Positions 17,430 to 17,761 of a DNA stretch of 31,047 bases are shown here, one piece after another. The first letter of the stretch is position 1, and each line of letters opens with the position of its first letter. The DNA comes from Escherichia coli (GTDB lineage: Bacteria > Pseudomonadota > Gammaproteobacteria > Enterobacterales > Enterobacteriaceae). The notes under the pieces are model-generated. The model worked only from the letters and a program-made list of their open reading frames with translations, ran no database searches and was not told the origin of the DNA. Both the position numbers and the translations under genes were made by a program. The stretch lies in NCBI RefSeq assembly GCF_003334815.1, contig NZ_QOWO01000043.1; one strand, written 5' to 3'.

Positions 17430-17592
17430 TGGTAGTGCCGTCAGCAGGAATGTTGTCCAGGGCGAAAAGCTTCTTCCTCGTTTCGCCCTGCCTTTCTTAA
17501 AAATTCCGTAATGCAAAGTCTGAAGCCATCGCCTGTTGAGCAATGAAAGAGATCTGATTGTAAGAGAGTAAATACTCAACTATGATAGAGAC

Positions 17593-17758
17593 GAAAATAA
17601 GAACACATGTTCTCATCTTCCAGGATGCAGCAGACTGAAGAAATTCAGACATCCCGCAACCTGCGATTATCGCAAGGTCAAGGCAAAGTCCGGTAATGGC
17701 GTTCTGAATACCAGAGATAATTCTCTGGCGAAACCCACCTTAAGGTGGGTTTTGTTAT
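17593..17758 (+). ncRNA. Candidate small RNA (~160 nt) between thiH and yjaZ; position consistent with the E. coli sRNA annotated as sroH
   Basis: Sigma70-like promoter (-35 TTGTAA 17558-17563, 17-bp spacer, -10 TATGAT 17581-17586) followed ~165 nt later by a tandem-hairpin intrinsic terminator; no SD-preceded ORF inside. The sroH assignment is from memory of its map position, not from a search. Confidence 0.45.
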
Positions 17759-17761
17759 TTT
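17711..17761 (+). terminator. Rho-independent terminator: tandem hairpins (ccagaga/tctctgg; aacccacc/ggtgggtt) followed by TTGTTATTTT
   Basis: Two perfect stems directly followed by a U-rich tract on the + strand; the U-tract overlaps the yjaZ stop codon on the opposite strand. Confidence 0.65.

Follow-up and report, generated by a model that had tools for sequence, protein, structure and literature searches.

Between thiH and yjaZ on the Escherichia coli chromosome lies a short interval that looks like a small transcription unit of its own, and the question it raises is what this unit encodes and why it stands beside yjaZ. We analyzed this interval in a stretch of 31,047 nucleotides (nt) of E. 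coli DNA (contig NZ_QOWO01000043.1 of assembly GCF_003334815.1; hereafter the window), a K-12-type chromosome segment in which thiCEFSGH on the plus strand are followed by yjaZ and rpoC on the minus strand. The original prediction, made from the sequence of the window, had taken the unit to be probably the gene of the small RNA (sRNA) SroH. Comparison with the Rfam family RF00372 (sroH) gave a match to window positions 17593-17753 (+) over model positions 1-161 (201.1 bits, E = 6e-51; gathering score 80). In the MG1655 reference (RefSeq NC_000913.3), the non-coding RNA gene sroH (b4691) occupies exactly the equivalent coordinates, 4190327..4190487, between yjaZ and thiH, on the thiH strand and 1 nt away from the yjaZ end. 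The 5' end had been predicted near 17593, which is exactly where the annotation places it. The feature in the interval is the already annotated sroH gene. What is new here is the fold of the RNA at the level of a family, its wide spread and its cassette with yjaZ, none of which is recorded in Rfam 15 or in the searchable literature. Taken together, these data place SroH, as the Escherichia member, in a widespread family of structured RNAs whose obligate partner within a mobile cassette is YjaZ.

The sroH gene originates from the RNomics screen of Vogel et al. 2003. SroH has been detected experimentally as an sRNA with a primary 5' end (by 5'-tagRACE) and a polyadenylated 3' end, and its function was described as "still unknown" (PMC5389530), in agreement with the original prediction, which had called it uncharacterised. 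The SroH level increases in stationary phase in a CRP-dependent manner (bioRxiv 10.64898/2025.12.22.696124), and also after azidothymidine (AZT) treatment and in an rsd mutant; no CRP site was obvious by eye at the K-12 sroH promoter. One target has been reported, kbl, which was bound by SroH in vitro in an electrophoretic mobility shift assay (EMSA; PMC6172242). SroH was enriched with Hfq by photoactivatable-ribonucleoside-enhanced crosslinking and immunoprecipitation (PAR-CLIP), yet is "not an established Hfq target". The gene is missing from phylogroups B2 and D and from some Shigella (PMC3318445). In the literature found, no paper ties SroH to YjaZ or places SroH outside enterobacteria.

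The link between the two genes was evident from searches in both directions. A protein-first scan, in which an alignment of YjaZ was compared with one genome per species, yielded 66 loci; in about 40 of these, a single-sequence nhmmer search was enough to reveal an sroH-like element that directly follows yjaZ and lies on the opposite strand. The taxa with a linked element included many cyanobacteria as well as Marinomonas, Aeromonas, Pseudomonas lundensis, Psychrobacter, Glaciecola and Lonepinella. When a covariance model built from 33 diverse RNA copies (R1) was applied, 45 protein-found loci scored 85-137 bits and about 80 RNA-found loci scored at least 85 bits. The RNA lies immediately after the yjaZ stop codon, on the opposite strand, in all 41 testable loci that encode a YjaZ of at least 39% identity, and across loci the stop codon falls from 7 nt inside to 30 nt beyond the end of the RNA. 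A distant YjaZ subfamily (26-37% identity), which accounts for most of the copies on Klebsiella, Enterobacter and Pseudomonas plasmids, is accompanied by a diverged RNA of the same architecture in the same relative place (20-70 bits). The RNA-first scan used a pattern from the 5' domain of the RNA against viral and metagenomic collections and gave 130 matches, of which 83 were true R1 matches; the remaining matches (about 47) were due to chance and were removed with the covariance model. A convergent YjaZ open reading frame (ORF) ending 110-150 nt after the RNA start was found for 64 matches. Nucleotide identity to K-12 was 59-88% for the RNA core and 60-70% for the yjaZ coding sequence, a roughly equal degree of conservation, and protein identity was 42-64%.

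Comparison of these copies revealed a common RNA fold (Table 1). Across the 33 diverse sequences the fold comprises 44 base pairs, with 96.9% of cells paired and compensatory changes at 29 of the pairs. None of 500 shuffled controls attained the observed values, and when the partners were slid by 1-3 columns only 34-48% of cells could pair. The fold held in a larger set of 89 distinct sequences from genomes, plasmids and metagenomes, where 96.8% of cells were paired and 510 cells were compensated. The 66 G-U cells favour the sroH strand (98.0% paired, compared with 92.7% on the opposite strand), and a near-invariant G-U pair in the terminator hairpin P5 also marks the plus strand. The original prediction had proposed a covariation analysis across the Enterobacteriaceae; covariation supports the fold and extends beyond that family. 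The pseudoknot covaries to CGGA/UCCG and CCGA/UCGG, and reads CAGG/CCUG in the distant subfamily, while in the long-range helix of the P3 domain the pair between alignment columns 61 and 108 is UA in 25 sequences, AU in 7 and CG in 1. The unpaired motifs GCAGCAGAC, GGUCGAGG, CCGGUAA and UUCUGAAUAC are invariant from E. coli to cyanobacteria. RNAalifold had paired ACC with the distal GGU; in its place we adopted a local ACC...GGU hairpin with an extension that covaries. Since neither GGU triplet varies, this choice rests on the contiguity and covariation of that extension. These analyses define an RNA family of about 130-160 nt, each copy with its own promoter and intrinsic terminator, and show that the SroH core is a structured, pseudoknotted RNA on the sroH strand, far more structured than a simple promoter-to-terminator sRNA.

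Table 1. Features of the sroH-yjaZ locus, in window coordinates
Feature	Position	Strand	Basis
Annotated SroH transcript, 161 nt	17593..17753	+	RF00372 full-length match; b4691; primary transcript in PMC5389530
Escherichia sroH promoter, TTGTAA-17-nt spacer-TATGAT	17558..17586	+	promoter scan; 9/12 consensus positions
Escherichia-specific 5' leader, outside the conserved RNA	17593..17620	+	absent from all non-Escherichia homologues
Conserved structured core, 141 nt	17621..17761	+	covariance model R1, 126.5 bits
P1, GGAUG (17623-27) with CAUCC (17650-54), enclosing P2	17623..17654	+	100% of cells paired; GGAUG/CAUCC to GAGUG/CACUC
P2 hairpin, CUGAA (17635-39) with UUCAG (17644-48)	within P1	+	compensatory changes at 5/5 pairs
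Pseudoknot 5' strand CAGA, in conserved GCAGCAGAC	17631..17634	+	pairs with UCUG 17703-17706 in 100% of sequences
Pseudoknot 3' strand UCUG, in conserved UUCUGAAUAC	17703..17706	+	covariation
P3 domain, long-range helix CGCA (17655-58) with UG-GCG (17697-17701), closing the junction	17655..17701	+	4/4 pairs covary
P3a variable hairpin, in P3 junction	17659..17678	+	extension covaries
GG/CC mini-hairpin, in P3 junction	17682-83 with 17690-91	+	P3 domain
Invariant GGUAA, in P3 junction	17692-96	+	P3 domain
P4 hairpin, CCAGAGAU with UUCUCUGG	17711..17728	+	8/8 pairs compensated, e.g. CAGAG/CUCUG to CAAAA/UUUUG
P5 terminator hairpin (17729-17754) and conserved tail UUAUUUU (UUUGUUAUUU tail)	17729..17761	+	compensatory changes at 6/10 pairs
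yjaZ (formerly htrC), 179 amino acids (aa), convergent with sroH	17755..18294	-	ORF; NCBIfam NF007263, 430 bits
yjaZ upstream region (presumed promoter and 5' untranslated region), in cassette	18295..18455	-	missing with sroH and yjaZ in empty-site strains
sroH-yjaZ cassette, ~945 bp, between the thiH terminators and the rpoC terminator	~17511..18455		alignment with empty-site strain CT282

The existing Rfam family describes this RNA at the same locus, on the same strand and with the same ends; its consensus structure consists of the terminator hairpin only, compared with the multi-helix pseudoknotted fold found here. At its gathering score, RF00372 identified enterobacterial copies only (158 bits in locus L008 and 89 bits in L006) and none in cyanobacteria, Aeromonas, Marinomonas, Pseudomonas and further taxa; the distant RNA copies are not covered at gathering thresholds by any other Rfam family either. 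The description of the family holds neither the multi-helix fold nor the wide distribution nor the link to YjaZ. In other enterobacteria, RF00372 positions 1-28 (17593-17620) align to promoter DNA, where a -10 box TATAAT stands 8 nt ahead of GGAUGC, so that the family is probably delimited incorrectly in taxa other than Escherichia.

The pair is frequent on plasmids. A blastn search of plasmids with the sroH interval matched its 3' two-thirds (from ~17616) at 79-91% identity on more than 100 plasmids from Serratia, Enterobacter, Klebsiella, Citrobacter, Phytobacter, Edwardsiella and other hosts, and among the matches listed the RNA copies mostly abut an annotated yjaZ homologue. YjaZ homologues were found on 559 plasmids. 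Among these carriers are ColRNAI plasmids of 2462 bp, and in the one inspected, pEc184_6 (L070), the pair is the only evident cargo; htrC has been described as a recurrent cargo gene of ColE1 plasmids (PMC5864857). The neighbours differ from locus to locus: on plasmids they include genes for transposases, resolvases, toxin-antitoxin systems and restriction-modification systems, in cyanobacteria they include housekeeping genes, and transfer RNA (tRNA) or transfer-messenger RNA (tmRNA) genes lie near some loci. Since the neighbouring genes are unrelated between loci, the sroH-yjaZ pair is self-contained. It moves as a two-gene cassette on plasmids, in genomic islands and in the chromosomes of several phyla.

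Some individual loci had further features. The cassette adjoins the tmRNA gene in Oceanobacter (L039, 3211-3568) and lies near tRNA genes in Aeromonas (L011, 3535-3616) and Marinomonas (L013, 8086-8354); tmRNA and tRNA genes are typical integration sites of genomic islands. In one lineage of large plasmids from Phytobacter, Klebsiella and relatives (L072-L077, 4952-5449), an ORF of 165 aa without a Pfam match always precedes the yjaZ homologue by ~550 nt. One metagenomic contig (L115) carries two copies of the RNA ~7 kb apart (3673-3807 and 10887-10959), the second of which ends at the contig end.

Within E. coli the cassette is variably present. A 601-nt query over the interval matched in full in 3730 of 5426 complete E. 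coli genomes, and elsewhere the match ended at ~17509. The yjaZ coding sequence was found in 3738 of these genomes (69%), and the cassette is missing from 31%. In the empty-site strain CT282, rpoC follows directly after thiH and ~21 unrelated nt replace the cassette. No flanking direct repeats were found at the cassette borders. With their tails, the thiH and rpoC terminators form a perfect 12-nt inverted repeat, GTTTTTTTATGG at 17421-17432 and CCATAAAAAAAC at 18456-18467. Its right arm begins exactly at the right border of the cassette; it is probably a coincidence of U- and A-tracts. Mobile-element signatures at the borders were accordingly rejected, this repeat being the sole candidate. In O157:H7-type E. 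coli, a 71-bp deletion (17824-17894) removes part of the 3' portion of yjaZ, which is annotated there as a 147-aa "protein HtrC", and sroH is intact.

The two partners decay unequally. We identified about 9 full-length RNA copies with enough flanking DNA that lack yjaZ, and 2 more that are accompanied by yjaZ remnants only. Intact RNAs also lie beside a frameshifted or truncated yjaZ in loci L041, L042, L045, L080 and L082 and in O157-type E. coli. The protein was never seen without the RNA, and the RNA sometimes outlives the protein, an asymmetry that toxin-antitoxin pairs typically display. As for the surroundings of the orphan RNAs, one (L091, 9417-9550) lies beside a convergent relBE-type toxin-antitoxin pair, a second (L084, 2927-3062) is located in a P2-like prophage region near ogr, portal and terminase genes and an Rpn-like nuclease, and two others (L161, 2307-2436; L195, 488-617) are situated directly upstream of a C5 cytosine methyltransferase gene.

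Same-strand arrangements of RNA and protein gene were limited to two loci, L032, which lacks the 5' part of the RNA, and L210 (1758-1937), from Vibrio parahaemolyticus pVPTJ15-3. The latter carries a complete main-type RNA followed by a yjaZ C-terminal remnant on the opposite strand (ending in LPQK before the stop codon), and 25 nt past this remnant, in the same orientation as the RNA, a YjaZ-like gene of the distant type (36% identity); the locus looks like the product of recombination between two cassette types. The same-strand layout was considered as proof against an antisense mechanism and rejected, because both loci look rearranged, the RNA of L032 being truncated at its 5' end and L210 retaining a yjaZ remnant.

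Together with the published primary 5' end, the flanking signals confirmed that sroH is an independent transcription unit with its own promoter and intrinsic terminator. The sigma-70-like promoter claimed by the original prediction, TTGTAA-17-TATGAT, was recovered by a promoter scan of 1.2 kb, which returned 3 promoter-like sites where 1.1 were expected, so that the hexamers alone are weak evidence. They are kept in the diverged E. coli E69 allele and not in other taxa; this promoter is specific to Escherichia. Most other taxa have a sigma-70-type -35/-10 pair that ends 7-9 nt before the core, whereas the Escherichia promoter is placed 35 nt upstream of it, resulting in an extra leader of 28 nt; blastn and nhmmer matches of other taxa start at ~17616-17622. 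At the 3' end, positions 17711-17754 fold as two adjacent hairpins, CCAGAGAU/UUCUCUGG and CGAAACCCACC/GGUGGGUUUUG, followed by UUAUUUU (-28.5 kcal/mol, z = -6.8), which is the tandem-hairpin terminator that had been predicted on the plus strand. A consensus terminator scanner called no terminator at the sroH 3' end, probably because the extended stem takes in the first U residues. The overlap of this terminator with the 3' end of the convergent yjaZ gene was likewise borne out, as the complement of the yjaZ stop codon (17755-17757) lies within the U-tail. Read on the yjaZ strand, the hairpin that the two genes share precedes UUUCGCC and makes a poor terminator. The suggestion that the terminator could act in cis on yjaZ pointed in the right direction, given that the link between the RNA and yjaZ spans phyla; we read this link as a partnership with the YjaZ protein.

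The two terminator-like hairpins upstream, which had been thought to insulate sroH from thiH, both exist: one at 17392-17427 (-14.6 kcal/mol, followed by U7) and one at 17458-17493 (-15.0 kcal/mol). E. coli strains without sroH and yjaZ keep both hairpins unaltered, and they are therefore part of the end of the thi operon rather than of the sroH unit. Sub-threshold Rfam matches in the window (rnk leader, Hammerhead_II, rsmX, Trp leader) correspond to terminator hairpins only. One such region at 18455-18581 (-) combined sub-threshold matches (rsmX, Trp leader, istR, Leu leader) with a 16-bit R1 match on the rpoC terminator hairpin AAAAACCCGCCGAAGCGGGUUUUU; these are terminator look-alikes and not RNA genes.

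We also examined the protein partner. YjaZ matches NCBIfam NF007263, its name-giving equivalog, and its homologues carry PF27200; NCBI names it "stationary phase growth adaptation protein". YjaZ itself had no match in Pfam-A, PADLOC, PHROGs or PDB sequences, neither YjaZ nor either of the small ORFs described below had a match in PADLOC-DB 2.0, and no YjaZ was found in 50,697 phage genomes. A heat-shock role of yjaZ (htrC) has been retracted (PMC11551758). A confident AlphaFold2 model based on 96 homologues (predicted local distance difference test score, pLDDT, 90.5) predicts a soluble alpha/beta protein. When this model was compared with the PDB using Foldseek, the best match was HigB2 (E = 0.04), and the RelE, HigB and ParE matches were weak and covered part of the model; the predicted structure thus weakly resembles RelE/HigB toxins. 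In AFDB50 the matches were restricted to uncharacterised YjaZ-like proteins, reaching Deinococcus, Acidobacteria and Burkholderiales.

How does the pair compare with known systems? In type III toxin-antitoxin systems (ToxIN, CptIN, TenpIN), a protein gene is likewise accompanied by a dedicated non-coding RNA gene, the module is frequent on plasmids, the RNA forms a pseudoknot and it has its own terminator; under the model proposed below, a folded RNA would also neutralise a nuclease-like protein. The type III RNA, however, is an array of 34-36-nt direct repeats that is processed by the toxin, whereas SroH, at ~135 nt, occurs as a single copy and has a promoter of its own. The type III order is RNA, terminator and toxin on one strand, in contrast to the convergent sroH-yjaZ arrangement in the window and in nearly all loci, and no similarity of YjaZ to ToxN/AbiQ was seen, its weak fold resemblance being to RelE/ParE. 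The type I systems txpA/RatA and bsrG/SR4 of B. subtilis share with sroH-yjaZ an sRNA gene that converges on the 3' end of its partner, so that antisense pairing with the 3' end of the messenger RNA (mRNA) is possible. Type I toxins, however, are small hydrophobic peptides (< ~60 aa), whereas YjaZ has 179 aa and is predicted to be soluble, and type I antitoxin RNAs are lineage-specific in sequence, whereas the SroH family keeps invariant motifs and a pseudoknot across phyla. Among type II toxins, RelE, ParE and HigB are the top structural matches for part of the predicted YjaZ model, and these matches are weak; YjaZ is twice as long and has no detectable sequence similarity to them, and no protein antitoxin gene adjoins yjaZ, the RNA gene taking that position. 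The Rsr (Ro60)-Y RNA modules resemble the pair in that a structured RNA is encoded beside its protein partner and the two together are non-essential, stress-linked and scattered sporadically through horizontal transfer. They have no sequence or fold relation to it, are not typical plasmid cargo and do not show the pattern of surviving RNA and decaying protein.

The interval also contains small ORFs. The original prediction had recognised an 18-codon frame, MIETKIRTHVLIFQDAAD followed by a stop codon (17582-17638), as the only internal ORF. This frame starts within the -10 box, ahead of the 5' end annotated at 17593, and so does not lie within the transcript; a 29-codon ORF (17607-17696) lies entirely inside it. 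Neither plus-strand frame is conserved, as in cyanobacterial homologues the frame that begins at the AUG of GGAUGCAGCAGAC is only 4 codons long, and the indels in hairpin loops among homologues are not multiples of three; a small protein encoded by SroH was therefore rejected. Opposite the SroH 5' leader, the minus strand contains a 51-codon ORF (17652-17497) with an AGG situated 7 nt ahead of the ATG and with a hydrophobic core, CVLIFVSIIVEYLL. This ORF lies mostly in leader and promoter DNA specific to Escherichia, is absent elsewhere and has no family matches, and it was rejected as a type I toxin; it is probably spurious.

What, then, might the partnership between SroH and YjaZ achieve? 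We consider the chances evenly balanced that SroH is the dedicated RNA partner of YjaZ, likely its antidote or regulator, in a toxin-antitoxin-like or defence-like module. YjaZ would be a RelE-like, RNA-targeting effector that recognises SroH as a folded RNA, and SroH would act as its RNA antidote or regulator; owing to the convergent layout, the yjaZ mRNA may in addition be under antisense control at its 3' end. The cassette of K-12 is chromosomal; it has gained its own upstream promoter and a 28-nt leader, and appears quiescent. A convergent gene pair obtains complementarity for free, and unpaired motifs and a pseudoknot that are conserved across phyla therefore call for recognition of a folded RNA, most simply by YjaZ. 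Combined with the life of the pair on plasmids and in islands and with its protein's weak resemblance to a RelE fold, these motifs make an RNA-antidote module the best-supported model. We suggest only tentatively, and with the balance tipping towards doubt, that SroH-YjaZ represents a new class, in which a single-copy, pseudoknotted RNA of ~135 nt in tail-to-tail arrangement, equipped with a promoter and terminator of its own, would be specifically recognised by a RelE-like effector of ~180 aa and would neutralise it. Plasmids would have spread this class across Proteobacteria and Cyanobacteria, and the chromosomal cassette of E. coli K-12 would be one of its copies.

Several observations weigh against the antidote model. 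According to work cited in PMC5389530, K-12 sroH deletion mutants are viable, with sensitivity to cell-envelope stress as the only phenotype, which would be unexpected for the sole antidote of an expressed toxin, speaks against strong expression of a toxin in K-12 and calls for caution. The fold evidence for YjaZ is weak, SroH has no tandem-repeat array of the type III kind (no tandem or direct repeats were found in 17350-18600), and the literature found contains no experiment connecting SroH with YjaZ. The orphan RNA copies could equally be compatible with an RNA that works alone, and the Hfq PAR-CLIP enrichment and the in vitro binding of kbl possibly point to trans targets in E. coli. The convergent layout, near-universal among the loci, is a conserved feature in its own right that fits an antisense component, and the two same-strand loci, both apparently rearranged or decayed, do not separate the rival models. 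An exclusively cis-antisense role of the type I kind, in which SroH pairs with read-through yjaZ mRNA and causes its degradation or a block while the RNA structure serves only stability or termination, is nonetheless unlikely. The tail-to-tail layout in nearly all loci, with the stop codon close to the RNA end, the weak terminator on the yjaZ strand, which makes read-through plausible, and the Bacillus precedents for 3' overlap would all suit it. Automatic complementarity, however, leaves the unpaired motifs and the pseudoknot shared across phyla unexplained, YjaZ differs in size and predicted solubility from the small hydrophobic type I toxins, and full-length orphan RNAs persist where no yjaZ is present to pair with.

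We likewise give a low probability to a non-toxic ribonucleoprotein (RNP), in which YjaZ binds, processes or modifies RNA and SroH is its cofactor or scaffold, in a stress-related housekeeping role similar to that of Rsr (Ro60)-Y RNA. The RNA and the protein are strictly linked and diverge together into two subfamilies, the conserved fold is compact with invariant loops, and sroH induction in stationary phase, the NCBI name of YjaZ and the viability of the deletion mutants, as cited in the source above, are all consistent with such a role. It is less easily reconciled with the presence of the pair on tiny cryptic plasmids and in islands rich in transposase, toxin-antitoxin and restriction-modification genes, with the frequent decay of yjaZ beside a persisting RNA and with presence or absence of the cassette within one species, all of them traits more typical of selfish or defence modules, or with a fold whose sole resemblance is to RelE-type toxins. 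That SroH is an ordinary trans-acting sRNA of E. coli, possibly associated with Hfq and directed at targets such as kbl, with its position beside yjaZ being incidental, appears improbable. The SroH-kbl complex, the Hfq enrichment and the reported regulation by CRP, stationary phase and DNA damage speak for it; the RNA, however, is conserved with yjaZ, on plasmids and in cyanobacteria, and not with any candidate target, it has no evident conserved single-stranded seed, its unpaired motifs lie inside the pseudoknotted fold, and the leader specific to E. coli is not conserved. Finally, we attach next to no probability to the sroH transcript or its antisense encoding a small protein (from the 29-codon frame or the 51-codon type I toxin candidate). 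The ORFs exist, and the antisense one has the AGG and the hydrophobic stretch described above, but neither is conserved outside Escherichia, the plus frame is shut after 4 codons in cyanobacteria, the loop indels do not come in threes, the antisense ORF lies mostly in DNA specific to Escherichia, and neither ORF matches any protein family.

The genes sroH and yjaZ are two of the remaining E. coli K-12 genes without a function, and the data presented here show them to be one unit; their pairing across phyla gives two orphan genes a testable function. Should SroH not prove to be an antidote, the pair of RNA and protein nevertheless counts as a conserved and new candidate RNP. If SroH is indeed an RNA antidote, sroH-yjaZ would represent a new architecture among RNA-based toxin-antitoxin and defence systems, it would explain an item of cargo that is frequent on small ColE1 plasmids and on large plasmids of Klebsiella and Enterobacter, and Rfam would gain a much broader, structure-based family.

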